From positions 1 through 49,639 of the forward strand of contig JAZQWF010000035.1 of the NCBI GenBank assembly GCA_045632185.1: a stretch of 49,639 bases of DNA, read 5' to 3'. The notes under the pieces were generated by a model. The model was not told the origin of the DNA, did no database searches, and was given only the letters and a program-made list of their open reading frames with translations. How positions within the stretch are numbered: position 1 is the first letter of the stretch; the number at the start of each line of letters is the position of its first letter. Both the position numbers and the translations under genes were made by a program. Source of the DNA: Eubacteriales bacterium (lineage in GTDB: Bacteria; Bacillota; Clostridia; Oscillospirales; CAG-272). Positions 30,319 through 43,735 of this stretch are shown piece by piece.

Positions 30319-30894
30319 ATGACAAAAAAACAAATCCTTACCACCAAGCAAATGACGCTGGGCGCGCTTCTCACGGCAATGGTCGTGGTGTTGCAGCTGC
30401 TTGGCTCCTTTATCCATCTTGGGCCGTTTGCCATATCTCTGGTACTGGTCCCCATCGTAATCGGTGCCGCGACCTGCGGCCCGCTGGTCGCCGCGTGGCT
30501 TGGTCTTTCCTTCGGTGTGGCCGTTCTGCTCAGCGGTGACGCGGCGCTCTTCCTTTCCATTCACGCGCCGGGCACGATCCTGACCGTGCTTTTGAAGGGA
30601 ATTCTGTGTGCCCTTGCAGCCGCATTGGTCTACAAGATTTTGGAGCGTATCAATCTTTACGTTGCCGTGTTCAGCGCCGCCGTTGTCTGCCCGATCGTCA
30701 ATACGGGTATATTCCTTGTCGGCTGCCGCTTGTTCTTCTGGGAAACGATCGTGGCGTGGGGTAACGATGCTGGATTTGCCAATCCTGCCGTATACGCGCT
30801 GCTTGGTCTTGTCGGTGCCAACTTCCTTTTTGAGATGGCGTTCAACCTGCTGCTTTCCCCGATCATCGTCCGACTTTTGAAAATCAAGCTTTGA
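30319..30894 (+). CDS. ECF transporter S component (PanT-like)
   Basis: About 6 TM helices, LVPIVIGA..GP, PIVNTG, ANFLFE. Confidence 0.82.
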   Translation: MTKKQILTTKQMTLGALLTAMVVVLQLLGSFIHLGPFAISLVLVPIVIGAATCGPLVAAWLGLSFGVAVLLSGDAALFLSIHAPGTILTVLLKGILCALAAALVYKILERINLYVAVFSAAVVCPIVNTGIFLVGCRLFFWETIVAWGNDAGFANPAVYALLGLVGANFLFEMAFNLLLSPIIVRLLKIKL

Positions 30895-30938: not shown

Positions 30939-31490
30939 TCAACTTTCCAGCTGGCGGCCAAGGAAGCCCGCCGCGGTCTGGATCAGCTTTGTCTCCACAT
31001 CCATCGTGGGCAGCTTTTTGTCGTTTTCCGTGCCGCCAAGCGACACCACGCAGCCAACCACGTCCCCCTCGGAGAGAATGGGCATGGCACAGCGCACGCC
31101 GAGCGAGCCGCCCTCCGCAATCGCGGGCACGTTTTCGTCCCCCTCGCGGTGCACAAAAAGAGTACGCCCCTCAATGATGCGCTCCATCTCCTCGGAAAGC
31201 GCCTTGTCGGCGTATTCCTTGCGGGACACGCCCGCCGTAGCGATCACCGCATCGCGGTCACAGATCACCACCGCAAGCGAGCAGGTCTTATACAGCGTTT
31301 CCGCGTACTCCCCCGCAAATGCGGCAAGCTCCCCGATCGGTGAGTACTTTTTGAAGATGACCTCGCCCTCTCGGTCGGTGTAAATTTCCAGCGGGTCGCC
31401 CTCGCGGATACGCATGGTTCTTCTTATTTCCTTAGGGATCACAACACGACCAAGGTCGTCGATCCTTCTCACAATTCCTGTGGCTTTCAT
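30939..31490 (-). CDS. spoVT: Stage V sporulation protein T
   Basis: MKATGIVRRIDDLGRVVIPKEIRRTMRIREGDPLEI plus C-terminal GAF domain ending AAGFLGRQLE. Confidence 0.96.
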   Translation of the reverse strand: MKATGIVRRIDDLGRVVIPKEIRRTMRIREGDPLEIYTDREGEVIFKKYSPIGELAAFAGEYAETLYKTCSLAVVICDRDAVIATAGVSRKEYADKALSEEMERIIEGRTLFVHREGDENVPAIAEGGSLGVRCAMPILSEGDVVGCVVSLGGTENDKKLPTMDVETKLIQTAAGFLGRQLES

Positions 31491-31556: not shown

Positions 31557-31745
31557 CGATATTTTGATTTTTATCCACGGCGTGATCATGGAGGTAATGG
31601 CGGCAAGTGCTTACCAATATTATAATGCTATTATAATGTCTTTCTTCCAAAACAGTCAGTTACTGTTGACAAATCCGTCTTTTTTTGTTATAATTTTATA
31701 CACAGTATGGTCATACATTTCACCCTTGCCGAAAGGAGGTCGCCT

Positions 31746-31849
31746 GTGGCCAAAAAAAGCTTTTATTCGAAAATTGCATACGCCATCGCCCTTGTGCTTT
31801 TGGCGCTCGGCACTGCGCTGACGGCCAAAAGCGATCTTGGCATTTCCAT
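31746..31849 (+). pseudogene. 5' remnant of a YczE/YitT-like (DUF6198-like) membrane protein
   Basis: Consensus promoter (31666-31694), AAAGGAGGT RBS, then VAKKSFYSKIAYAIALVLLALGTALTAKSDLGIS; coding character ends abruptly at AT-rich promoter DNA. Confidence 0.6.
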
Positions 31850-31874
31850 ACATTATAAAAAACATTACAGGCTA

Positions 31875-31903
31875 TTGACAACTTCTTCACAATGTGCTAT
31901 AAT
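31875..31903 (+). promoter_or_regulatory. Consensus sigmaA promoter with overlapping Rex-like operator
   Basis: TTGACA-N17-TATAAT with TG; TTGACAA-CTTC-TTCACAA (31875-31892) matches 12 of 14 positions of TTGTGAA-N4-TTCACAA. Confidence 0.7.
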
Positions 31904-32034
31904 GTTGACGAATGTGCGTGAAACTCGTGTGGGCGACTTGTGATTCGAACGCATTTTCCCTTTCGGATCGCAAATCACCCACACGGGAAGCACGTGCATA
32001 TCACAAAAAAAGAAAAAGAAAGAGGAAAAGAATC

Positions 32035-33069
32035 ATGAAAAAAATTCTCACTCTCGTCCTTTGCCTTTGCATGATGCTCACCATGGTTACCGTGTTCGCA
32101 TCTTGTGGCAAGGCTGACTACAAGCTCGGCATGGGCGTCGTTGTCAGCATGGACAGCTCCAAGACCGGCACCGCACAGGTCGACGCTACCGTTGCAACCG
32201 TTGTGACCGACGCTGATGGCAAGATCGTTGCTTGCCGCATCGACGTTGCTCAGAACAAGATGAACGTTACCGACGGCGCAATTGAGGCAACCAAGACCTT
32301 CGAGACCAAGATGGAGCTTGGCACCCGTTACGGCATGGCCGGCAAGGTTGATAACGACGACAACGGCGTTATGCTTGAATGGGACGCTCAGGCTAAGGCA
32401 TTCGAGGAGTACGTTGTTGGCAAGACCGCTGCTGACATCAAGGCTATGACCACCCAGGAGAAGAAGGGCCACCAGATCACCACTGATCAGGCTCTGCTTG
32501 ACGCTGGTTGCTCCATGCAGATCACTGACTTCATCGCTGCAGTCGTTAAGGCTTGCGAGGATGAGCAGGGCATGGCATTCACCGCAAAGAAGGGCTTCAC
32601 CCTTGGCGTAGCTGCTAAGACCGTTGTTGATTCCGCTACCACTGCTGCTACCGCTACCGCTGACGGTGTTGTTGCTATGTACACCGACTTCGCTGCTGCA
32701 GTTGTTGCTGACGGCAAGATCGTTGCTGCTCTGAACGACGCTATCCAGCCCAAGATCGGCATGAATGTTGCCGGCGAGATCACCACCAAGACCTTCAAGG
32801 ACACCAAGCGCGCTCTTAAGGGCGACTACGGCATGGCCGGCAAGGTTGACAACAACGACGACGGCGTTATGAAGGAGTGGTTCGAGCAGTCCGCTGCTTT
32901 CTCCGCTCACGTAGTTGGCATGACCGCTGAAGAGGTTGCTGCTATGACCACCCAGGCTGCTAAGGGCCACGACATCTCCACCGATGCCGAGCTCCTCGCT
33001 GCCGGCTGCTCCATGCAGATCACCGGCATCAAGGCCGTTGTTGCACAGGCTGCTACCAACGCTCGCTAA
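32035..33069 (+). CDS. Lipoprotein with two tandem FMN-binding-like domains
   Basis: FASC lipobox; internal duplication (YGMAGKVD..DD.GVM.EW..Q..AF...VVG.T...LL.AGCSMQIT twice); next to apbE; codon bias typical of highly expressed genes. Confidence 0.8.
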   Translation: MKKILTLVLCLCMMLTMVTVFASCGKADYKLGMGVVVSMDSSKTGTAQVDATVATVVTDADGKIVACRIDVAQNKMNVTDGAIEATKTFETKMELGTRYGMAGKVDNDDNGVMLEWDAQAKAFEEYVVGKTAADIKAMTTQEKKGHQITTDQALLDAGCSMQITDFIAAVVKACEDEQGMAFTAKKGFTLGVAAKTVVDSATTAATATADGVVAMYTDFAAAVVADGKIVAALNDAIQPKIGMNVAGEITTKTFKDTKRALKGDYGMAGKVDNNDDGVMKEWFEQSAAFSAHVVGMTAEEVAAMTTQAAKGHDISTDAELLAAGCSMQITGIKAVVAQAATNAR

Positions 33070-33096: not shown

Positions 33097-34152
33097 TTGA
33101 AAATCTTCAAATCTCTCGTCTGCCTTTGCGCAGTTTTGGGGCTGCTCGTCGTTTTGGCGGGCTGCCCTAATTCTGCTCATAAGGAGGAACCGAAAGGGAT
33201 GGTATATTACACCTTTTTTGATACGGTGTCCTATATTTACAGCTATGCCAATGACTCGCAGGAGGTTTTTGAGGCAAACTGTGAAAGGGCGTCCGACATT
33301 TTGGAGGAGTACCATCGCCTTTTTGATATCTACTATGCATACTCCGGCATCAACAATCTGAAAACCATCAACGAGAACGCCGGAAAGGAGCCGATCAAGG
33401 TCGATCAAAAGCTGATCGATTTCCTTCTTTACGCCAAGGAGCTTTATACGCTGACAGGTGGCGAAATGAACGTGATGATGGGCTCGGTGCTCTCTCTTTG
33501 GCACGATTGTCGCGAAGCGGCAAGCACGGATCCCGCCAATGCGGCAATTCCCGAAAAAGATGCGTTGGACGAGGCGGCCTTGCATACAGATATTTCCCTT
33601 TTGGAAATTGATACGGTGAACGGCACCGTCCGCATCACCGATCCCGCTGCCCGCATCGACGTGGGGGCCCTGGGAAAGGGCTATGCCACCGAAAAGGCGG
33701 CAGAATATCTGCGCTCCCAAAATGCTGACGGCTACGTCCTCAACATCGGCGGCAACATTCGCATCATCGGCCACAAGCCGGACGGCTCCGGTTGGGGCAC
33801 CGGCATCAAAAATCCTGCCGACACCTCTCAATATGCGCTCAAACTGACCATTGCCGACACGTCCTGCGTGACCTCCGGCGATTACGAGCGATACTTCACT
33901 GTAAACGGCACAAAATATCATCACGTTATCGACAAAGACACTCTTATGCCTGCGAGCTATTTCAGCTCGGTCACGATCATTACCCCCAACAGCGCGCTTG
34001 CCGATGCGCTTTCTACGGCTCTGTTCACTATGAGCTATGAAGACGGTCTTGCACTGATCAACCGAATCGGCAACGTGGAGGTTCTTTGGATCTCTACGAA
34101 CGGAGAGATGAAAATGAGCGAGGGACTTAGCTCCCTTGTAATGGAAGAATAA
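33097..34152 (+). CDS. apbE: FAD:protein FMN transferase ApbE (lipoprotein)
   Basis: LAGC lipobox, FDT, IDVGALGKGYA, NIGGN, TSGDYERY, YHHVID, ADALSTALF. Confidence 0.95.
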   Translation: MKIFKSLVCLCAVLGLLVVLAGCPNSAHKEEPKGMVYYTFFDTVSYIYSYANDSQEVFEANCERASDILEEYHRLFDIYYAYSGINNLKTINENAGKEPIKVDQKLIDFLLYAKELYTLTGGEMNVMMGSVLSLWHDCREAASTDPANAAIPEKDALDEAALHTDISLLEIDTVNGTVRITDPAARIDVGALGKGYATEKAAEYLRSQNADGYVLNIGGNIRIIGHKPDGSGWGTGIKNPADTSQYALKLTIADTSCVTSGDYERYFTVNGTKYHHVIDKDTLMPASYFSSVTIITPNSALADALSTALFTMSYEDGLALINRIGNVEVLWISTNGEMKMSEGLSSLVMEE

Positions 34153-34179
34153 AAAATATTTAAATTAGGAGTAGTGCTA

Positions 34180-35556
34180 ATGTTATTCAAGAAAAAGAAC
34201 ATTTCGTCCCTGCACATTCCTCACAACAAAAACACGGCGGGCCTTGTTCCCACAAGGATCGACACCCCCAAGGAAGTCGTTCTGCCCATGAACATCACGT
34301 CCCATGGTATGAACGCCTCCAAGCCCGCGGTTTGCGTTGGAGATCACGTGCGCGTCGGACAAGTTGTTGCATCCGAGGAAGGCAGATTTTCCACCTTCAT
34401 TCACGCTCCCATTTCCGGAACGGTAACCTCGATTGCTCCCATCAAGTTCAGATCTGAGCAAGAGGTCGTTGCCATTACGATCGAGAGCGACGGCAAGATG
34501 GAGCTTTCCCCCGACATCAAGAAGCCCGAATTCAGCAACTGCACCGAATTCCTGCAAGCAGTGAACAACGGCGGCATCGTGGGCCTTGGCGGTGCGGCAT
34601 TCCCCATCTGGGCAAAGCTGCGCGAGGCAACCAACCCCGATTACAACGTTGACACCGTGCTGATCAACGCGGCAGAGTGTGAGCCCTACATCACCAGCGA
34701 CCATCGCATGATGCTGGACCACCCCGATCTGATCGCTGACGGTATCGAGTACCTGCGCACCTACATGAGCGAGTATCTCGGCAACGCAACCTTCAAGATC
34801 TGCATCGAGAAGAACAAGCCCGATGCGATCGAGGTATTGAAGCAGACCTTTGCAGGCAAGGATTACGTGGTGATCCACGAGTTGGATGCCATCTATCCCC
34901 AGGGCGCAAAGCAGGTCATGCTTTACAACGCAACCGGCCGTGTTGCCATTGCGGGTAAGCGTTTCCCCTCCTTCGGTGCCATCATCATCAACGTTTCCTC
35001 TATTGCCAAAATGGCAGAATACCTCAACACGGGTATCCCGCTTATCGAGCGTATCGTAACCGTGGACGGTCCTGCCGTTGCAGAGCCCAAAATGCTGATC
35101 GCTCCCATCGGCACGCGCGTCAGCGAGATCCTCAAATACGTTCCCTTGAAGGAAGGTGTTGAGCTGGGTAAGGTCATCATCGGCGGTCCTATGAACGGTA
35201 CCTCCGTTTATTCTGTCGACGCTCCCCTTTCCAAGGTTGCCAACGCAGTGCTTCTGTTCTCCGAGGAGGACGCCGTTCTGCCCCAGGCGTCTGCGTGCAT
35301 CAACTGCGGTCGTTGCATTGAAAAGTGCCCCGTAAGCATTTCCGTGGCACAGGTTGCCCGCGCACTGCGCACCAGAAACGAGGATCTGAGAGCACAGCGC
35401 CTGATCGACACCGGCGTTCGTCAGTGTGTAGACTGTGCATGCTGCTCTTACGTATGCCCTGCCAACCGTCCTTTGCTGCAAATCAACAATCAGGCAAATT
35501 CCTTCCTGAAAAAGTACGCAGCTGCACAGAAAGAAAAAGAAGGAGGTAACAAGTAA
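34180..35556 (+). CDS. rnfC: RnfC-like NAD(P)H/FMN and 2x[4Fe-4S] subunit
   Basis: IHAPISG, GIVGLGGAAFP, INAAECEPYITSD, YPQG, GGPM.G, CINCGRCIEKCP, CVDCACCSYVCP. Confidence 0.92.
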   Translation: MLFKKKNISSLHIPHNKNTAGLVPTRIDTPKEVVLPMNITSHGMNASKPAVCVGDHVRVGQVVASEEGRFSTFIHAPISGTVTSIAPIKFRSEQEVVAITIESDGKMELSPDIKKPEFSNCTEFLQAVNNGGIVGLGGAAFPIWAKLREATNPDYNVDTVLINAAECEPYITSDHRMMLDHPDLIADGIEYLRTYMSEYLGNATFKICIEKNKPDAIEVLKQTFAGKDYVVIHELDAIYPQGAKQVMLYNATGRVAIAGKRFPSFGAIIINVSSIAKMAEYLNTGIPLIERIVTVDGPAVAEPKMLIAPIGTRVSEILKYVPLKEGVELGKVIIGGPMNGTSVYSVDAPLSKVANAVLLFSEEDAVLPQASACINCGRCIEKCPVSISVAQVARALRTRNEDLRAQRLIDTGVRQCVDCACCSYVCPANRPLLQINNQANSFLKKYAAAQKEKEGGNK

Positions 35557-36497
35557 TGTCCCTTCACATCTCCGCTACCCCCCATATTCATCAGAAGGGC
35601 TCCTCCACGCGCAACATCATGCTTGACGTGGTGATCGCTATGCTCCCCGCCACGGTTGCGGGCATCGTGATCTTCGGTCTGAAAGCCCTTTTCACGGTTC
35701 TTGCCTGCGTGGCAAGCGCTGTTGCCGCTGAGTACGTATTCAACCTCTGCACGCGCAGAAAGCAGACCATTGGCGACCTTTCCGCCGTGGTTACCGGTCT
35801 TCTGCTGGCGCTGAACCTCAGCACCGCAGTACCGCTTTGGCAGTGTGCCATCGGCTCGATCTTCGCAATCATTGTTGTCAAGTGCCTGTTCGGCGGTCTT
35901 GGCAAGAACATTGTGAACCCCGCAATCACCGCACGCGTATTTATGCTGCTGACCTTCTCCGCTGTGGCGGCCGTTGCAACGCCCACCATCGTGGAGGTTA
36001 CCGCAGGCGCAACCCCTCTCGCAGCTCTTAATCAGGGCGCAGAGATCGCCGCAAAGCAAGCTCCCTCCATTCTGGATCTGTTCCTTGGTCTGCACGGCGG
36101 CGCCATCGGCGAGACCTGCGCACTCGCGCTGATCATCGGCGGCATCTACCTTGTAGTTCGCAAGGTCATCAAGTGGTACGTTCCCGTATCCTTCATCGCA
36201 ACCACCTTCCTTTGCTACTTCTTCTTCGGCGGCTTTGACGCCACCTTCGCACTGCAACACGTGCTGGCTGGCGGTCTTTTGCTTGGTGCCATCTTCATGG
36301 CAACCGACTACGTCACCACCCCCTTCACCAACAAGGGCCGCGTGGTATTCGGTATTGGCGCCGGTCTTCTGACCTTCGTGATCAGAAAGTTTGGTGTATA
36401 CCCCGAGGGCGTTTCCATTGCGATCCTGACCATGAACCTTGTCACCCCCTTCATCAATGATTTCACCAAGAAAAAGACGCTGGGAGGTATTAAGTAA
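35556..36497 (+). CDS. rnfD: RnfD subunit
   Basis: DLSAVVTGLLLA, FGGLGKNIVNPA, TAGATPL flavinylation motif, GAIGET, FMATDYVT, YPEG. Confidence 0.95.
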   Translation: MSLHISATPHIHQKGSSTRNIMLDVVIAMLPATVAGIVIFGLKALFTVLACVASAVAAEYVFNLCTRRKQTIGDLSAVVTGLLLALNLSTAVPLWQCAIGSIFAIIVVKCLFGGLGKNIVNPAITARVFMLLTFSAVAAVATPTIVEVTAGATPLAALNQGAEIAAKQAPSILDLFLGLHGGAIGETCALALIIGGIYLVVRKVIKWYVPVSFIATTFLCYFFFGGFDATFALQHVLAGGLLLGAIFMATDYVTTPFTNKGRVVFGIGAGLLTFVIRKFGVYPEGVSIAILTMNLVTPFINDFTKKKTLGGIK

Positions 36498-37771
36498 TGA
36501 AATTGCTCAAAACATTCGGTATCCTTCTCATCGTTGTTGCCCTGTTCGGCACCGCTATGTTCGGCCTGAACTTTGTAACCGGCCCGATCATTGAAGCAAA
36601 CAAGGCCGGCGCTGCCAATGACCGCCTGAATGCTGTTATGCCCGGCGGCACGGCGTACGAGGACATCACCTCCACCCTTTCCAACGTTCCCGCTAACGTG
36701 AAGAAGGTAAGCAAAGAAACCAGCGGCCTTGGCTTCGTTATTGAATGTACCGCAACCTCGCAGTACACCGGTGGCGATCCCATGGATATCGTTCTCGGCG
36801 TAGATGCTGAGGGCAAGATCTGCGGCATCAACCTGGTATCCCACTCCGAGTCCCTGATCTTCGGTGCTGATTACCCCGCAACCTATATCGGCAAGGACTC
36901 CGCTCTCACGGGAGTTGAGCTGTATGCCGGCTCCACCTTCTCCTCCACCGCATTCAAGAACGCCGTTAGCGACGCTATGGGCGTACTGATCTCCAACAAC
37001 CTGATCAAGGAGGGCGTCAAGACCGAGGAGCAGATCCTCGCCGAGATGATCCCCACGCTGCACACCGGTCTTTCCGCCGGCGGCATTCTGAAAGCAGAAA
37101 AGATCGTTGCAAGCGGTAACATCGTCGAGGGCTATAAGGCACTCAACGGCTCCGGCTTTGCCTTCATTATGCAAAGCGGCGATGCCAAGCTGCTTGTGCT
37201 TGTCAATGCAGCGGGCGCTTGCAAGGTCGTTGACACCACCGGTGCAGACGTAACCGCCGCCAACGAGGCACTTTGCACCGAGGCACTCACCGCGGCAGGC
37301 ACCTTCAAGGATTACACGGCCGCACTCAGCACCACGATCCTTGCTCATTACAGCGATGCAACCGCTATCACCAAGCTGGACTTCACCACCTTTGGTAACG
37401 TTGCATTTGCCGTATCCTTCCAATCTGCCGGAAACACCTACTACGCATTCTACTCTGTGCCCCTTTCCTACGAGGACAGCGTAATGTCCATCACGACCAT
37501 TCTGGACGCCAACGGCGCCATCGTGAAGCAGGATATCAAGCAGATGGCATTCGGCCACGGCGTTGAGTATATGGACGGCATCAAGGATTTGGTCAACAGC
37601 TCCTCCTCTGCATTCCAGAACTTCTTGGGCAAGTTCGCAGGGCTTACCGAGGACACTCTTACCGATAGCGTGCTGGTCACCGGTGCAACCGTTTCCACCA
37701 GCGCAGTGAAGCTTGCTACCGCTGATGCGTTTGCTGCATTCAAATCCATCAACAACGGAGGTAACCAGTAA
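36497..37771 (+). CDS. rnfG: Extended RnfG-like subunit with two FMN-binding domains
   Basis: N-terminal TM followed by VTGPIIE; motifs AGSTFSS and VTGATVST; 424 aa, about twice a typical RnfG. Confidence 0.8.
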   Translation: MKLLKTFGILLIVVALFGTAMFGLNFVTGPIIEANKAGAANDRLNAVMPGGTAYEDITSTLSNVPANVKKVSKETSGLGFVIECTATSQYTGGDPMDIVLGVDAEGKICGINLVSHSESLIFGADYPATYIGKDSALTGVELYAGSTFSSTAFKNAVSDAMGVLISNNLIKEGVKTEEQILAEMIPTLHTGLSAGGILKAEKIVASGNIVEGYKALNGSGFAFIMQSGDAKLLVLVNAAGACKVVDTTGADVTAANEALCTEALTAAGTFKDYTAALSTTILAHYSDATAITKLDFTTFGNVAFAVSFQSAGNTYYAFYSVPLSYEDSVMSITTILDANGAIVKQDIKQMAFGHGVEYMDGIKDLVNSSSSAFQNFLGKFAGLTEDTLTDSVLVTGATVSTSAVKLATADAFAAFKSINNGGNQ

Positions 37772-38391
37772 TGAATAAGACGAAAACTTCCTACCTCCTG
37801 AGAGGCACGCCCTCCGTGCTTCTGGTGCTTGGTGCCGGCTTTGTTATGGCATCCAGCGCCGATATCCGTGCCGCTCTTGGCATGGGCGCAGCTGTGCTGC
37901 TTGCGATGCTGCTTAGCTCCATCGTGATCTCCGCTCTGCACAAGTTTATCCCCTGCTACGCAAAAACCCCTGTTTACCTGATGATCATCACCGGCTTCGT
38001 TTCCCTGATCTCCATGCTGATGCAGGCATTCTTCCCCATTGTGGTAGAGATGCTCGGCGTGCATCTGGCAACGCTTGCCGTCAGCGCGGTCATCTTCCGC
38101 GACTGCGAAGAGGTTGCGGATTGCTGCGACGAGATCGTAACGATCAAAACCTCGCTTGTAACCGGCGCGTTCTTCACCGTTGTGATGGTGGTTTGCGCAC
38201 TCATTCGTGAGATCTTCGGCAACGGCTCGATCTTCGGCCTTGAAATCAAGTTCATGCAGAACGTCAAGATCTCTGCTCTTGCAGGCGCCTTTGGCGGTTA
38301 CCTTGTGCTTGCTATCGTGATGGCTGTGATCAACAAGCTCACCGGCCTTCACCATCATCTGGAAGAAAACGCAGAAAAGGAGGATAACTGA
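37771..38391 (+). CDS. rnfE: RnfE-like membrane subunit lacking the conserved Fe-S Cys ligands
   Basis: LGMG, VISAL.KFIP, IREIFG.G.IFG; LGAGF replaces LGxCP and VSAVI replaces VNCII. Confidence 0.85.
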   Translation: MNKTKTSYLLRGTPSVLLVLGAGFVMASSADIRAALGMGAAVLLAMLLSSIVISALHKFIPCYAKTPVYLMIITGFVSLISMLMQAFFPIVVEMLGVHLATLAVSAVIFRDCEEVADCCDEIVTIKTSLVTGAFFTVVMVVCALIREIFGNGSIFGLEIKFMQNVKISALAGAFGGYLVLAIVMAVINKLTGLHHHLEENAEKEDN

Positions 38392-38393
38392 TT

Positions 38394-38957
38394 ATGGAAT
38401 TCAACGTCATTTTGGGCATCCTTCTTGCCGGCCTTCTTTCTAACAACTACGCGTTGCTTCACTTCCTTGGTACCGGCGCTGTGCTGGAAAACGAGCGCTC
38501 CTCCAAGAAATCTCTCATGCTTGGTCTTGGCACCACCGTGGTCATGCTGATCTCCACCCTGATCACCCACCCCATCAACCAGTATCTGCTTGCCAAGGTC
38601 CCCTACCTGCAAACGATGGTCTTTGTACTGGTCGTTCTGGCAGTTGTAGAGCTTCTTCACATTGCTGCAAGCAAGCTGCTTGACGGTTACTGCCGCGCAG
38701 ATTTCGTCAAGTTCGCCATCAACGGCGCGGTTCTCGGTCTTTGTATCCACAACACCGAGCACAGCTTCGGCGAGGCGATCGTTACCTCCGTGGCTGTCGG
38801 TATCGGCTTTATGCTGACGATGACGCTTTTCGCCAAGATCAAGGACGATTACGTTGACGAGGAAGCGATCCCCGCTTCCTTCCAGGGTCTGCCCATCGCC
38901 CTCTTGACTGCCGGCATGATCGCACTGGCAATGCTGGCTCTGCAATTCAAATTCTGA
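38394..38957 (+). CDS. rnfA: RnfA-like membrane subunit lacking the conserved Fe-S Cys ligands
   Basis: NNYALLHFLG, YLQTMVFVLV, IPASFQGLPIALLTAGMIALA; FLGTG replaces FLGxCP and INGAVLG replaces TNCAVLG. Confidence 0.87.
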   Translation: MEFNVILGILLAGLLSNNYALLHFLGTGAVLENERSSKKSLMLGLGTTVVMLISTLITHPINQYLLAKVPYLQTMVFVLVVLAVVELLHIAASKLLDGYCRADFVKFAINGAVLGLCIHNTEHSFGEAIVTSVAVGIGFMLTMTLFAKIKDDYVDEEAIPASFQGLPIALLTAGMIALAMLALQFKF

Positions 38958-39310
38958 TGAGCAAAAAAGATCTGATCCTGATCGGGATCATCCTTGCGGT
39001 GATCCTGATCTCGTTTCCGGTGATCTCGCTATTCAAGCAGGACGGTGCTTACGTGATCGTTCGCGTGGATGGCAACGAGGTCGCCAGATACGATCTGAAC
39101 GAGAACGGGCAATATGATCTCAACGGAGGAACAAACGTCCTTCGCATTGAGGACGGTACCGCCTATCTCGTGTCCGCCGACTGTCCCGATCATCTTTGCG
39201 TCAATCAGGGCAAGATCGACGAGAGCGGCGAGGTGATCACGTGCCTGCCCAACCGCCTTACCATAACGGTGTACGGCGCGGGCGACAACGAGGTCGAGCT
39301 GATCAGTTAA
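38957..39310 (+). CDS. NusG domain II-containing (DUF1312) membrane-anchored protein
   Basis: KKDLILI TM anchor; ADCPDHLCV.QG.I...GEVITCLPNR. Confidence 0.9.
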   Translation: MSKKDLILIGIILAVILISFPVISLFKQDGAYVIVRVDGNEVARYDLNENGQYDLNGGTNVLRIEDGTAYLVSADCPDHLCVNQGKIDESGEVITCLPNRLTITVYGAGDNEVELIS

Positions 39311-39328: not shown

Positions 39329-39823
39329 ATGAAAGCCAAACGAGTGACCTTTTTGGGATTATCCATCGCACTTGCTATGATCCTCTCCTTCGTAGAGCAT
39401 CAGATCCCCGCGCTGGTCGCAATCCCGGGCATCAAGGTAGGTCTTCCCAACATCGTGATGGTGTTTCTTCTGTACCGTGTGGGCTGGAAGGAAACCGTCA
39501 CCGTCAGCATCATTCGCATTCTTTTGGTGTCGATGCTATTCGGCAACGCGCAAACCATGACGTTCAGTATCGCGGGCGCGGTGCTGAGTTTATTGGGTAT
39601 GATCCTGCTCAAAAAGCTGAACTGGTTTTCCTGCATCACCGTCAGCATTGCCGGTGGTATCCTGCATAATATCGGGCAGATCATCGCCGCCGTCTTCTGG
39701 ACGGGTACGGCGCAGATCGCCTTCTATCTCCCCGTTCTGCTGATCAGCGGCACGGTGGCGGGCACCTTGATCGGCATTCTTTCCGGCATGATGGTCAAGC
39801 GCATGGAAAAATGGAAATTCTAA
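39329..39823 (+). CDS. Gx transporter family / heptaprenyl diphosphate synthase component I-like protein
   Basis: ALAMILSFVE..IP...PGIKVGLPNI, SIAG, HNIGQI, YLPVL. Confidence 0.9.
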   Translation: MKAKRVTFLGLSIALAMILSFVEHQIPALVAIPGIKVGLPNIVMVFLLYRVGWKETVTVSIIRILLVSMLFGNAQTMTFSIAGAVLSLLGMILLKKLNWFSCITVSIAGGILHNIGQIIAAVFWTGTAQIAFYLPVLLISGTVAGTLIGILSGMMVKRMEKWKF

Positions 39824-39824
39824 C

Positions 39825-40147
39825 AACAAAAGAAAAACACCCCCAAACGGGGGTGTTTTTCTTTTGTTCGCGCACATTTCCAAGGCACTCAAAACCAGAT
39901 GCAGAAGCCGTGATCGCAATACGCCGCCATATTTCAATGCCGCATGTGGTGCGGGCGCGGCTCACAAACAAAAACCCGCACCAAACGGTGCGGGTTTTGT
40001 ATGTTCTGCGCGCTTCCCCAGGCGCTCGAAATCAGATGCAGAAGGCGTGATCGCGAACGCCGCTGTATTGGAATACTGCAAGTGAACGAGCACGGCTAAT
40101 AAACAAAAAACACCCCCAAACGGGGTTTTTTTTGTTATGTTCTGCGC
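39825..40147. repeat. Degenerate ~137-bp tandem repeat (two full units, three hairpins); the first hairpin also serves as terminator
   Basis: CAGATGCAGAAG.CGTGATCGC at 39896 and 40033; hairpins centred on CCAAACGG at about 39843, 39981 and 40116. Confidence 0.8.
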
Positions 40148-40170: not shown

Positions 40171-41580
40171 TTACTTGAGCAGAGCCTCAGCAATAGCCTT
40201 TGCAGCCGTCTTGCCTGCGCCCATTGCGGAGATAACGGTTGCAGCACCGGTTACGGCGTCACCGCCTGCGTAAACGGCGTCACGGGAGGTCAGACCGTCC
40301 TCGTTGACGACGATGCCGCCCCAACGGTTGACCTCAAGGCCCTTGGTGGTGGACTTGATCAGGGGGTTGGGGGAGGTACCGATGGACATAACCACGGTGT
40401 CAACGGCAAGCTCGAAATCGCTGCCGGGAACAACAACGGGACGGCGTCTGCCCTTCTCGTCGGGCTCGCCAAGCTCCATCTTCACGCACTTCATGCCCGT
40501 GACGAAGCCATTCTTGGGATCGCGGGGATCCTCGGGATTGTTGTAACCAACGATCTCGGTGGGGTTGCACAGAAGCTGGAATACAATTCCCTCCTCCTCA
40601 GCATGCTCGACCTCTTCCTTACGTGCAGGAAGCTCCTCCATAGAACGACGGTAAACGATGTAAACAGTCTCAGCACCAAGACGAAGCGCGGTACGAGCGG
40701 CGTCCATAGCCACATTACCACCGCCGACAACGGCAACCTTGCCACCCTTCATGATGGGGGTGTCGGGATTGTCGAGGTATGCCTTCATCAAGTTGCTTCT
40801 GGTCAGGAACTCGTTTGCGGAGTAAACGCCCTTGTAGGACTCGCCGGGGATACCCATGAAGTTGGGCAGACCTGCGCCGGAGCCAACGAATACGGCCTCA
40901 TAGCCCATCTCGAACAGCTCGTCAATGGTGAGCGTCTTACCGATAACCACGTTGGCCTCGATCTTCACGCCAAGTGCCTTCAAGCCCTCAACCTCCTTAG
41001 CAACGATTGCCTTGGGAAGACGGAATTCGGGAATACCGTAAACCAGCACGCCGCCTGCGGTGTGCAGTGCCTCAAATACAGTAACCTCAAAGCCGGCCTT
41101 TGCCAGGTCGCCTGCGCAGGTAAGGCCGGAGGGGCCGGAACCGACGATAGCCACCTTGTGGCCGTTGGACTCGGGCTTTACGGGAGCTGCGGTGCAGAAG
41201 GTATTGTGCCAGTCAGCAACAAATCTTTCCAGACGGCCGATACCAACGCTCTCGCCCTTGATACCGCGTACACACTTGGACTCGCACTGCGTTTCCTGAG
41301 GGCAAACACGGCCGCAAACTGCGGGCAGAGAGGAGGACTTGGTGATGATCTGGTATGCACCCTCGAAATCACCCTCCTTGATCTTGGTGATGAATTCGGG
41401 AATGTGGATCTTTACAGGGCAACCCTGTACGCAGGGCATATGCTTGCAGTTCAGGCAGCGATTTGCCTCGTCGATCGCCTGCTCCTCGGTATAGCCGAGA
41501 GCAACCTCTTGGAAATTGCGCGCGCGGACCTTTGCGTCCTGCGTGGGCATTTCGTTACGTTTCAGAGCCATATTTGCCAT
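40171..41580 (-). CDS. nfnB: NfnB (large subunit of the electron-bifurcating transhydrogenase; GltD-like)
   Basis: RCLNCK..PCVQGCPV, CGRVCPQETQCE, VGSGPSGL, YGIPEFRLP, VVGGGNVAMD, AGGDAVTGAATV; paired with nfnA. Confidence 0.9.
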   Translation of the reverse strand: MANMALKRNEMPTQDAKVRARNFQEVALGYTEEQAIDEANRCLNCKHMPCVQGCPVKIHIPEFITKIKEGDFEGAYQIITKSSSLPAVCGRVCPQETQCESKCVRGIKGESVGIGRLERFVADWHNTFCTAAPVKPESNGHKVAIVGSGPSGLTCAGDLAKAGFEVTVFEALHTAGGVLVYGIPEFRLPKAIVAKEVEGLKALGVKIEANVVIGKTLTIDELFEMGYEAVFVGSGAGLPNFMGIPGESYKGVYSANEFLTRSNLMKAYLDNPDTPIMKGGKVAVVGGGNVAMDAARTALRLGAETVYIVYRRSMEELPARKEEVEHAEEEGIVFQLLCNPTEIVGYNNPEDPRDPKNGFVTGMKCVKMELGEPDEKGRRRPVVVPGSDFELAVDTVVMSIGTSPNPLIKSTTKGLEVNRWGGIVVNEDGLTSRDAVYAGGDAVTGAATVISAMGAGKTAAKAIAEALLK

Positions 41581-41581
41581 A

Positions 41582-42436
41582 TTACTGCACCTCTTTCTTA
41601 AACAGATTGCAGGCAGCCTCGTGTGCGTGGCGCTCGAAGTCCGCGTACATTCTGCCTCTGGACATAGCTTCGTCGAAATCGACCTCGTAGCCGTTGAAGT
41701 CAGGACCGTCTACGCAAGCGAACTTGGTGACCTTCTTGCCGTCAACGTTCAGGGTAAGACGGCAACCGCCGCACATGCCCGTGCCGTCGATCATAACGGG
41801 GTTCATAGAAACGGTAACGGGCGTGCCGAAGGGCTTAGCCGTTGCCACCACGAACTTCATCATGATCAGAGGACCGATGGTGATGATCATATCAAACTTT
41901 TCGCCCTTTTCCAGCATTTCCTTCAAGGGCATGGTCACGTTGCCGTGCTCGCCGTAAGAACCGTCGTCGGTCATCACGCGCAACGTATTAGAGCAGGCCT
42001 TGAACTCGTCCTCCAAAATCAGCAGATCCTTGTTACGGAAGCCGATGATGCTGGTAACCTCAGCGCCCATCTCGTGAAGCGCCTCAGCAATGGGCATTGC
42101 GATGGCACAGCCAACGCCGCCGCCCACGATGCAAACCTTCTTCAAGCCGTCCAGGTGAGTGGGCTCACCAAGGGGGCCTACGAAATCCTGAATAAAGTCG
42201 CCTGCTTCCTTATGAGCAAGCTTCTCGGTGGTGCCGCCAACGACCTGGAAGATGATCTTCACGCCGCCCTTAACGGGATCAACGCCTGCAACGGTCAGGG
42301 GAATACGCTCACCCTCTGCGTCAACACGCAGGATAATGAACTGGCCGGGCTTTGCCTTGTTGGCCACCAGGGGTGCCTCGATCCACAGCTGGATAACGGT
42401 GGGGTTCAGCACCTTTTTGTCTAAAATCTTGTACAT
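41582..42436 (-). CDS. nfnA: NfnA (small subunit; FAD/NAD and [2Fe-2S])
   Basis: PGQFII, GERIPLT, VGPLG, VGGGVG, IGPLIMM, MIDGTGMCGGCR, CVDGPDF. Confidence 0.9.
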   Translation of the reverse strand: MYKILDKKVLNPTVIQLWIEAPLVANKAKPGQFIILRVDAEGERIPLTVAGVDPVKGGVKIIFQVVGGTTEKLAHKEAGDFIQDFVGPLGEPTHLDGLKKVCIVGGGVGCAIAMPIAEALHEMGAEVTSIIGFRNKDLLILEDEFKACSNTLRVMTDDGSYGEHGNVTMPLKEMLEKGEKFDMIITIGPLIMMKFVVATAKPFGTPVTVSMNPVMIDGTGMCGGCRLTLNVDGKKVTKFACVDGPDFNGYEVDFDEAMSRGRMYADFERHAHEAACNLFKKEVQ

Positions 42437-42938: not shown

Positions 42939-42969
42939 AAAAAAGAGGCGCTTTCGCGCCTCTTTTTTT
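42939..42969. terminator. Bidirectional intrinsic terminator
   Basis: AAAAAAGAGGCGC-TTTC-GCGCCTCTTTTTTT. Confidence 0.85.
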
Positions 42970-43735
42970 AACCAAGCAAAAGGTCGGTGACAAGCATCAC
43001 GCAAAAGCCGATAAGCAACGCGTAGGTGGCACCGCGCTGATGCCCCTCGTGATGCGTTTCAGGGATCATCTCGTCACTGATGACGTACAGCATCGTACCG
43101 CCCGCAAAGGCCAGTGCAAAGGGCAGGATCGCGGCGGCAACGCTGACGGCAAAATAACCGATCAGGGTACCCACAACCTCAACCACACCTGTCATCATAG
43201 CAAGCACCAGCGTCTTGCCCTTGGAAACGCCGGCGGCCAGCATCGGGCCAATGATGACCATACCCTCGGGGATATTCTGCAATGCGATACCGCCCGCGAT
43301 GATCAGCGCTTGCGCGGTATCACCCGAGCCAAATCCCACGCCCGCTGCAATACCCTCGGGCAGGTTATGAATGGCGATCGCCATCACGAAAAGCAGCACC
43401 TTGCTGAGCTGTGCGTTGCGGTGCGGCTCCTCGTCCTTCGAGGCGATCATTTTGTGCAGGTGAGGCACCAGCTTGTCGATCAGGTTCAGACACAACGCAC
43501 CTGCAAAAATGCCGGACACGGTGAACAGAATGGCAAGCCCCGTGCCGTACTCCTCGCCGTATTCCAGCGAAGGGATCACAAGACCGATCACGGCCGCCGC
43601 CAGCATGACGCCTGCGGCAAAGGACAGCACGATGTCCGAAAATTTATGCGAAATATTCTTAAACAAAAAGCCGATCAGCGCGCCAAGCACAGTCGCTCCG
43701 CCCACGCCTGCGGCAGTCAGTAATACCAGCTCCAT
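42968..43735 (-). CDS. ZIP family (ZupT/GufA) metal transporter
   Basis: FAAGVMLAA, IAIHNLPEGIA.G, IALQNIPEG, AGGTMLYV..EMIPE. Confidence 0.92.
   Translation of the reverse strand: MELVLLTAAGVGGATVLGALIGFLFKNISHKFSDIVLSFAAGVMLAAAVIGLVIPSLEYGEEYGTGLAILFTVSGIFAGALCLNLIDKLVPHLHKMIASKDEEPHRNAQLSKVLLFVMAIAIHNLPEGIAAGVGFGSGDTAQALIIAGGIALQNIPEGMVIIGPMLAAGVSKGKTLVLAMMTGVVEVVGTLIGYFAVSVAAAILPFALAFAGGTMLYVISDEMIPETHHEGHQRGATYALLIGFCVMLVTDLLLG

Follow-up and report, generated by a model that had tools for sequence, protein, structure and literature searches.

An RnfB-less Rnf variant of gut Clostridia whose RnfE- and RnfA-like proteins lack the cysteine ligands of the intramembrane iron-sulfur cluster

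The window analysed here, a contig of 49,639 nucleotides from an Eubacteriales bacterium (JAZQWF010000035.1 of assembly GCA_045632185.1), carries on its + strand a compact unit of nine genes, for which the open reading frame (ORF) listing gave the order lipoprotein-ApbE-RnfC-D-G-E-A-NusG_II-Gx. The unit encodes a variant of the Rnf complex in which an RnfE-like protein (206 amino acids, 37771..38391, +) and an RnfA-like protein (187 amino acids, 38394..38957, +) both lack the cysteines that hold the intramembrane cluster, and it is close to certain that the canonical cluster shared by RnfA and RnfE (A/E cluster) is absent from this complex. The available text of PMC12174285 calls this [2Fe-2S] cluster of RnfA/E (NqrD/E) strictly conserved and gives the canonical electron path as ferredoxin, RnfB, the A/E cluster, then across the membrane to the flavin mononucleotide (FMN) of RnfG, the FMN/riboflavin of RnfD, RnfC and NAD+. 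The explanation that we favour, with guarded confidence and on sequence evidence, is a remodelled Rnf paralogue whose ferredoxin branch would be gone, whose electrons would pass from NADH via RnfC, RnfD and RnfG to extracytosolic flavoproteins, and in which RnfA and RnfE would form a redox-inert scaffold that is nevertheless needed.

A sequence-only reading of this stretch had claimed that RnfE and RnfA are full-length and intact, have lost all four ligand cysteines in concert and carry small residues instead, quoting LGAGF and LAVSAVIF for RnfE and FLGTGAVL and FAINGAVLG for RnfA. Both ORFs are indeed intact, all four motifs are present in the translations, and alignment with phmmer (HMMER) to the solved chains of Acetobacterium woodii (9ERI), Clostridium tetanomorphum (7ZC6), Azotobacter vinelandii (8AHX) and the Vibrio cholerae NQR (7XK3) bore out the loss, with no other cysteine at the ligand columns. 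RnfE-like G23 (codon 37837..37839, +) was found under the first ligand cysteine, C25 of A. woodii RnfE, in the three alignments reaching this position (9eri_E, 7zc6_E and 7xk3_D; the alignment to 8ahx_E begins at residue 26 and so does not cover it), and A106 (38086..38088, +) under the second, C108, in four of four. Similarly, RnfA-like G28 (38475..38477, +) and G111 (38724..38726, +) were each placed under the two ligand cysteines, C25 and C113 of A. woodii RnfA, in all four alignments (9eri_A, 7zc6_A, 8ahx_A and 7xk3_E). The column numbering agrees with the A. woodii cluster ligands as named in the accessible part of the preprint (RnfA C25 and C113, RnfE C25 and C108; bioRxiv 10.1101/2024.06.21.599731). 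Three glycines and one alanine, all small residues, therefore occupy the four columns, and the prolines flanking the ligands are lost as well: GxCP has become GAGF in the RnfE-like protein (Pro to F24) and GTGA in the RnfA-like protein (Pro to A29), the proline of the canonical IPLIVVNC is A100 in the former, and the L-P-L preceding TTNC is missing from the latter.

Both proteins passed the Pfam model Rnf-Nqr (RnfE-like 84.6 and RnfA-like 82.9 bits; cut-off 23.8) and missed the cut-offs of the NCBIfam subfamilies, with 87.9 vs 213.4 bits for TIGR01948 (RnfE-like) and 89.2 vs 229.3 bits for TIGR01943 (RnfA-like). When the best 120 database clusters for each protein (76-100% identity) were aligned, G23 and A106 of the RnfE-like as well as G28 and G111 of the RnfA-like protein were invariant in 120/120 and 120/120 homologues, respectively. 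No cysteine was detected at the four columns in the window and 11 species-level genome loci either, which come from metagenome-assembled genomes of gut Eubacteriales, Christensenellaceae and Clostridia and reach down to 45% identity; canonical representatives kept both RnfE cysteines in 36 of 36 cases. Structure prediction of the RnfA-like and RnfE-like proteins together with a 2Fe-2S cluster gave a score of 0.62, but as one control reached 0.49, the prediction speaks neither for nor against a cluster. The two most distant RnfE-like proteins (L017:8001-8600 and L019:348-953) read A-A-C-P in transmembrane helix 4 (TM4), with the cysteine one column before the second ligand and followed by a proline, reminiscent of the GxCP motif in TM1; their partner RnfA-like proteins showed no matching cysteine.

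Selection on the Cys-less genes was analysed by the method of Nei and Gojobori with the least saturated pairs, and the ratio of non-synonymous to synonymous substitution rates (dN/dS) was 0.04-0.11 for the RnfE-like and 0.06-0.16 for the RnfA-like gene, compared to 0.05-0.14 for RnfD, 0.04-0.19 for RnfC, 0.18-0.32 for the RnfG-like protein and 0.31-0.45 for the lipoprotein. The two genes are not decaying and stand under purifying selection, as constrained as the redox subunits RnfC and RnfD. As four cysteines were lost together while this selection persisted, a role independent of the canonical cluster is indicated, which upholds this much of the earlier proposal of a retained structural or ion-channel function without redox chemistry; the choice between the two functions is a matter of the alternatives weighed below. 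Because the constraint on both proteins is strong, it suggests that they are more than filler, namely either an obligatory docking or assembly module or one with a kept ion-related role.

A second proposal of the sequence-only reading, that the RnfE-like loop DCEEVADCCDE (38101..38133, +) could be an alternative metal site, was rejected, as the loop cysteines vary among the 120 homologues. Position 112 is occupied by Cys in 90 and by Ala in 30 of them, position 118 by Cys in 54 and by His in 57, and position 119 by Cys in only 2 and by Asn in 108, so that only the acidic residues D111, E113, E114, D117 and E121 are invariant or nearly so. Elsewhere in the two proteins some cysteines and a histidine are kept: C100 (120/120) and C117 (119/120) of the RnfA-like protein, both also present in 12/12 of the window and the genome loci, and C142 (120/120, and 11/12 in the window and genome loci, with Ser in L019) and H98 (120/120) of the RnfE-like protein.

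The loss of the cluster coincides with the absence of RnfB. A canonical RnfB query from a genome of the same genus gave no match in the window and a full-length match in 0/12 related loci vs 6/6 canonical loci. The rnfB model TIGR01944 found nothing over its cut-off in the window's own metagenome-assembled genome (G000, 79% complete), in G016 (83%) and in G034 (93%), and in G024 (93% complete) and G108 (96%) the sole RnfB over the cut-off adjoins a second, canonical rnfE/rnfA pair. In these two genomes the variant cluster therefore coexists with a canonical rnfCDGEAB, as would be expected of a paralogue with a job of its own. The canonical operon of the same genus is arranged as rnfC-D-G-E-A-B-NusG_II-Gx-ApbE with an RnfG of 170 amino acids and all ligand cysteines present, and from this arrangement the variant is, by its sequence and gene order, a diverged paralogue derived from the ordinary clostridial rnf layout; identity between the window and the canonical copy is ~58% for RnfD and ~35% for RnfC, RnfE and RnfA. 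The nine genes were found in identical order in 9/9 related loci of sufficient length, and three shorter loci show the expected parts. Distribution is patchy, with the variant in 3/36 other species of the genus and 1/400 sampled genomes of the order.

RnfC and RnfD look intact by model cut-offs and motifs. RnfC (34174..35556, +) scored 337.8 bits with TIGR01945 (cut-off 245.95) and gave an E value of 1.1e-33 for Complex1_51K; its NADH/FMN domain and its two C..C..C...CP motifs (375 and 418) were covered by a full-length alignment to 7zc6_C (268 bits), in which the GLGGA.FP, ECEPY and YPQGA stretches and both [4Fe-4S] motifs are kept. RnfD (35556..36497, +; 313 amino acids, PF03116 alone) reached 294.8 bits with TIGR01946 (cut-off 207.05) and 299 bits to 7zc6_D, and its GATPL motif at 151 predicts flavinylation at T153. 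The long RnfG-like protein (424 amino acids, 36497..37771, +) has an N-terminal anchor, matched Pfam FMN_bind with 44.4 bits (cut-off 22) and remained with 32.4 bits under the cut-off of 102 for TIGR01947. It shows two FMN-binding-type motifs, TGAT at T398, aligned by HMMER to the flavinylation motif of 7zc6_G, and GST at T147, where relatives have SGAT; both threonines are invariant in 9/9 sequences. An AlphaFold2 model (pLDDT 76) was matched by Foldseek to RnfG of 7zc6, 9eri and 8ahx with a probability of 1.0. The corresponding protein of one relative (L010:6085-7998) has 638 amino acids and one further FMN-binding-type repeat, indicating that the number of flavin domains differs between species.

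Upstream of RnfC lie an ApbE flavin transferase (33097..34152, +; Pfam ApbE 221 bits) with its own lipobox LAGC and, as first gene of the operon, a two-repeat lipoprotein (32035..33069, +). The ORF of the latter as listed begins at 31912, and 32035 is the start bearing the lipobox FASC. AGC[ST][MI]Q is invariant in each repeat, as are C67, C159 and C174 in the first and C325 in the second. The lipoprotein belongs to no Pfam family, FMN_bind included, and its AlphaFold2 model (pLDDT 89), when searched as a whole against the PDB by Foldseek, gave nothing at E <= 0.001. Weak to middling fold matches were obtained to 2kzx (Z 6.1), 3o6u (Z 5.6), IscU (Z 5.5) and domain 2 of SaFMN3 (Z 4.0), a weak profile match to 2kzx (E 0.8) aligned SGAT with AGCS, and the nearest named Atlas cluster is FMN_bind (0.85). 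It is possible that the lipoprotein is an FMN-binding-like electron acceptor, although its invariant cysteines and the IscU match may also hint at a site based on thiols or metal in place of a flavin.

Because the donor subunit RnfB and the A/E cluster are missing together, a single path from NADH via RnfC and RnfD to RnfG would remain. Cytosolic NADH would be oxidized by RnfC with its FMN and two [4Fe-4S] clusters, and electrons would pass to RnfD and on to a doubly flavinylated RnfG, from where they would probably continue to the two-domain lipoprotein; ApbE would attach the flavins. RnfA and RnfE would have no redox centre and would be retained because they are needed structurally, to dock or anchor RnfG and RnfD. 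We infer from these data that the pair carries no cluster of any kind, that flow is outward with NADH oxidation, that the lipoprotein is the acceptor and that redox-driven Na+ pumping has been lost. The missing rnfB, the apparently intact RnfC and RnfD, the two motifs of RnfG, the upstream lipoprotein and ApbE and the coexisting canonical rnf are, in our view, what best explains the loss of the cysteines. A one-way flow from NAD(P)H to extracytosolic FMN has been proposed for a two-subunit RnfD/RnfG-like system, and a multi-flavinylated RnfG has been proposed as a second, outward path, as far as the available text of Meheust et al. (2021, PMC8238504) goes.

Several observations weigh against this explanation. 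The sequence does not dictate which way electrons flow, and a constraint as strong as that on RnfA and RnfE is easier to reconcile with an active role than with a mere scaffold. Nor does the favoured explanation account for the kept residues C100 and C117 (RnfA-like) and C142 and H98 (RnfE-like). The long RnfG is not specific to the variant: in two metagenome contigs (L038 and L061) it occurs together with RnfB in canonical operons of the order rnfC-D-G-E-A-B-NusG_II-Gx and matches the RnfG-like protein of the window across residues 4-421 with 35-37% identity, so that the long RnfG would either predate the loss of RnfB and the cluster or be unrelated to it. Only a weak link ties the lipoprotein to FMN domains (best Z 6.1, profile E 0.8, no Pfam family), which makes the proposed acceptor a guess. 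Finally, the genomes with the variant only are 79%, 83% and 93% complete, and their assemblies could have missed a canonical rnf or rnfB.

An alternative that we regard as rather unlikely, and that comes close to the ion-channel role of the sequence-only reading, is that RnfA and RnfE are cluster-free and still move Na+ or H+, as passive channel or conformationally coupled path, so that the flow from NADH to the outside would build or use an ion gradient. Purifying selection equal to that on RnfC and RnfD is consistent with such a role, and so are the kept residues of the A. woodii Na+ path, with RnfE E115 as E113 (120/120), R67 as K65 and V106 as V104 and RnfA N112 as N110, together with the conserved acidic loop around RnfE-like E113. 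On the other hand, the Na+-binding loop between TM4a and TM4b of the RnfA-like protein is rebuilt (Y105 to K106, L106-P107-L108 deleted, T110 to A108, T111 to I109), the gating L103 of RnfE is T101 in the window and T or A across homologues, and E88 of the RnfA ion-pair network is replaced by His. An ion-related role is weakened by the rebuilt loop and the lost gating leucine, and the reduction of the A/E cluster, which drives Na+ uptake in the A. woodii model as given in the accessible part of the preprint (bioRxiv 10.1101/2024.06.21.599731), is absent here.

We consider it improbable that the favoured path runs in reverse, with an extracellular donor such as reduced flavins or the redox shuttle of a partner feeding the lipoprotein and RnfG for NAD+ reduction at RnfC. 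NADH is in general a stronger reductant than flavins, whether free or bound, and given these potentials net NAD+ reduction would be uphill without an ion-coupled step. Such flow would nevertheless agree with a direction that is not fixed by sequence and with the canonical segment RnfG-RnfD-RnfC-NAD+, which runs the same way in the available text of PMC12174285.

Still more doubtful is the binding of another cofactor by RnfA and RnfE via C100, C117 and H89 of the former and C142 and H98 of the latter, with an unrecognised cytosolic partner in place of RnfB. The candidate residues C100, C117, C142 and H98 are conserved in the clade and largely kept in distant members, and in L017 and L019 the extra cysteine precedes the position of the second canonical RnfE ligand by a single column. 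However, C100 and C117 are 17 residues apart and, judged by the alignment to 9eri_A, at opposite ends of the broken TM4, which makes a common site unlikely, position 142 is a serine in L019, no set of four ligands is kept clade-wide, and the operon holds no candidate partner gene. It is hardly credible that the two genes are remnants in decay or reflect an error of assembly or sequencing: the window does come from a metagenome-assembled genome of 79% completeness, but the ORFs are intact, the same substitutions recur in independent database clusters (120 for each protein) as well as in 11 genome loci, dN/dS is 0.04-0.16 and the nine-gene synteny is kept.

The wider RnfE/NqrD family was surveyed with the 150 representatives (clusters at 50% identity) nearest to the RnfE-like protein, a set that is skewed toward the query and gives no prevalence. 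Both ligand cysteines are kept in 75 of them, only the first in 32, only the second in 3 and neither in 26, the remaining 14 being fragments. A quick maximum-likelihood tree was calculated from 86 full-length rows, with fragments, rows outside 170-270 amino acids and some canonical rows omitted. It contains a split with an SH-aLRT support of 100, one side of which comprises 43/86 rows (25 first-only, 18 neither) and 0 canonical ones, and the window falls within a 10-row subclade that is likewise supported by 100. A metagenome scan with a first-Cys-only protein (P0393) led to 41 loci with 32-49% identity to it, and all 30 examined loci of at least 4.5 kb were closer to the canonical RnfE query than to that of the window. 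Samples of 400 genomes from the phylum and another 400 from the class yielded no match closer than the window's own genome. One first-Cys-only member carries the name 'Rnf-Nqr domain containing protein [Candidatus Limivicinus sp.]'. Tentatively, the window may be one tip of a large, unrecognised RnfE/NqrD branch unable to hold the canonical cluster, and such a 'half-Rnf' may form a class of its own among membrane redox machines, in which electrons would pass from NADH via RnfC, RnfD and RnfG to the outside with neither RnfB nor an A/E cluster, and RnfA and RnfE would do an essential, cluster-independent job. If this is true, half-Rnf complexes would be a natural separation of both halves of the Rnf electron loop, and they would be extant equivalents of the intermediate without rnfB through which Na+-NQR is proposed to have arisen.

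Compared to the canonical Rnf complexes (7ZC6, 9ERI, 8AHX), the variant has homologues of RnfC, RnfD, RnfG, RnfE and RnfA, arranged in the clostridial manner (C-D-G-E-A), and, as in the canonical operon of the same genus, attached genes for ApbE, NusG_II and Gx. It differs by the lack of RnfB, of the four A/E ligand cysteines and of their flanking prolines, by an RnfG of 424 amino acids with two flavinylation motifs, by the extra lipoprotein gene in first place and by the move of ApbE to the front. With Na+-NQR it shares the derivation from an rnfCDGEA-type operon without RnfB. For nqr it was proposed that a duplicated rnfCDGEA lost rnfB first and that RnfC then decayed to NqrA, according to the accessible text of Reyes-Prieto et al. 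(2014, PMC4014512). The variant would have taken the opposite course: whereas in NQR the cluster of NqrD/E persisted, NqrF was acquired as donor and RnfC became the cofactor-less NqrA, here the cofactor motifs of RnfC are kept and the A/E cluster is lost. The C subunit accordingly scores as an RnfC with Fe-S motifs, the Nqr models remain far under their cut-offs, and no NqrF-like gene was found in the operon.

The two-subunit NQR/RNF-like system is built, in the part of PMC8238504 available, from an RnfG-like protein and a fusion of an RnfD-like domain with an NAD-binding domain of the NqrF type (PF00175) and has no C, E or A subunits, and its RnfD-like part has no flavinylation threonine as far as the accessible text of a 2024 preprint describes it. 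In contrast, RnfD of the variant is unfused and keeps GATPL, RnfC would be the NADH module, and E and A are retained. A further comparison is that with Rnf clusters with a multi-flavinylated RnfG, in which RnfG has more than one FMN-binding domain and is proposed to feed extracytosolic acceptors, and which are reported in Christensenellales (available text of Meheust et al., 2021). These clusters are defined there by the presence of RnfB and have the outward path as a side branch, whereas it would be the sole path in the variant. In a full-text search, from which most subscription journals and supplements were excluded, no literature with RnfA/E or NqrD/E homologues lacking the ligand cysteines was found.

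Flavin-based extracellular electron transfer of the Listeria type combines FmnB/ApbE with the two-domain FMN lipoprotein PplA. The extracytosolic ApbE lipoprotein adjoining a two-domain lipoprotein in the variant presumably resembles this pair, with only ApbE backed by Pfam. The two systems differ in that the membrane step of the variant would be RnfCDG(EA) and not Ndh2/quinone/EetAB, and in that its lipoprotein has AGC[ST] where FMN-binding domains have SGAT and no FMN_bind match.

The remaining genes of the operon encode a NusG domain II protein (38957..39310, +; Pfam NusG_II 100.6 bits), which in relatives is also found 3' of canonical rnfB, and a membrane protein assigned as Gx-type by Pfam Hpre_diP_synt_I (135.3 bits) and synteny (39329..39823, +). 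A two-way terminator-like hairpin of 12 pairs (39971..39998, no strand assigned) closes the operon. At the 5' end, two promoter-like sites of the sigma-70 kind match the consensus at 12/12 positions: one at 31666..31694 (+), TTGACA-17-TATAAT with TG, and a second at 31875..31903 (+), 132 nucleotides 5' of the lipoprotein start; these sites and the hairpin are consensus matches only. Between these two perfect sites, and extending into the second, is a short reading frame (31746-31905) that has a good ribosome-binding site. Its translation (VAKKSFYSKIAYAIALVLLALG...) resembles the membrane helix at the N-terminus of some larger protein, and a rearrangement 5' of the operon may have left it there as the remains of a gene. 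Neither an FMN riboswitch nor any other Rfam family reached its gathering score anywhere in the window.

Two genes lie just upstream of the operon: 30319-30894 (+) encodes an S component of an energy-coupling factor (ECF) transporter, which matches Pfam ECF_trnsprt with 52 bits and has no NCBIfam name, and 30939-31490 (-) encodes a SpoVT-type regulator. Downstream, a pair resembling NfnAB or sulfide dehydrogenase (40171-42436, -) comprises a GltD-like protein with Fer4_20 and Pyr_redox_2 and a DHODB_Fe-S_bind protein, and is followed by a ZIP-family metal transporter (42968-43735, -; Pfam Zip 97.6 bits). The NfnAB-like genes were considered as a functional partner and rejected, as L009 and L010, the two closest relatives, are the only ones in which they adjoin the operon, and the linkage is thus not conserved. 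In both relatives the pair has the opposite relative orientation compared to the window, which implies a local inversion.

A complex without cluster and without RnfB, in which RnfA and RnfE are nevertheless under strong selection, offers a way to ask what these two subunits do beyond carrying the cluster, and it is of interest for the mechanism of Rnf and Nqr as well as for extracellular electron transfer in gut anaerobes. The JGI names annotate such proteins as 'RnfA/RnfE, electron transport complex', so that metabolic models would assume a ferredoxin:NAD+ coupling where it is probably nonexistent. As the variant suggests, gut Clostridia that have neither quinones nor cytochromes may dump electrons from NADH extracellularly by a hitherto unrecognised route.

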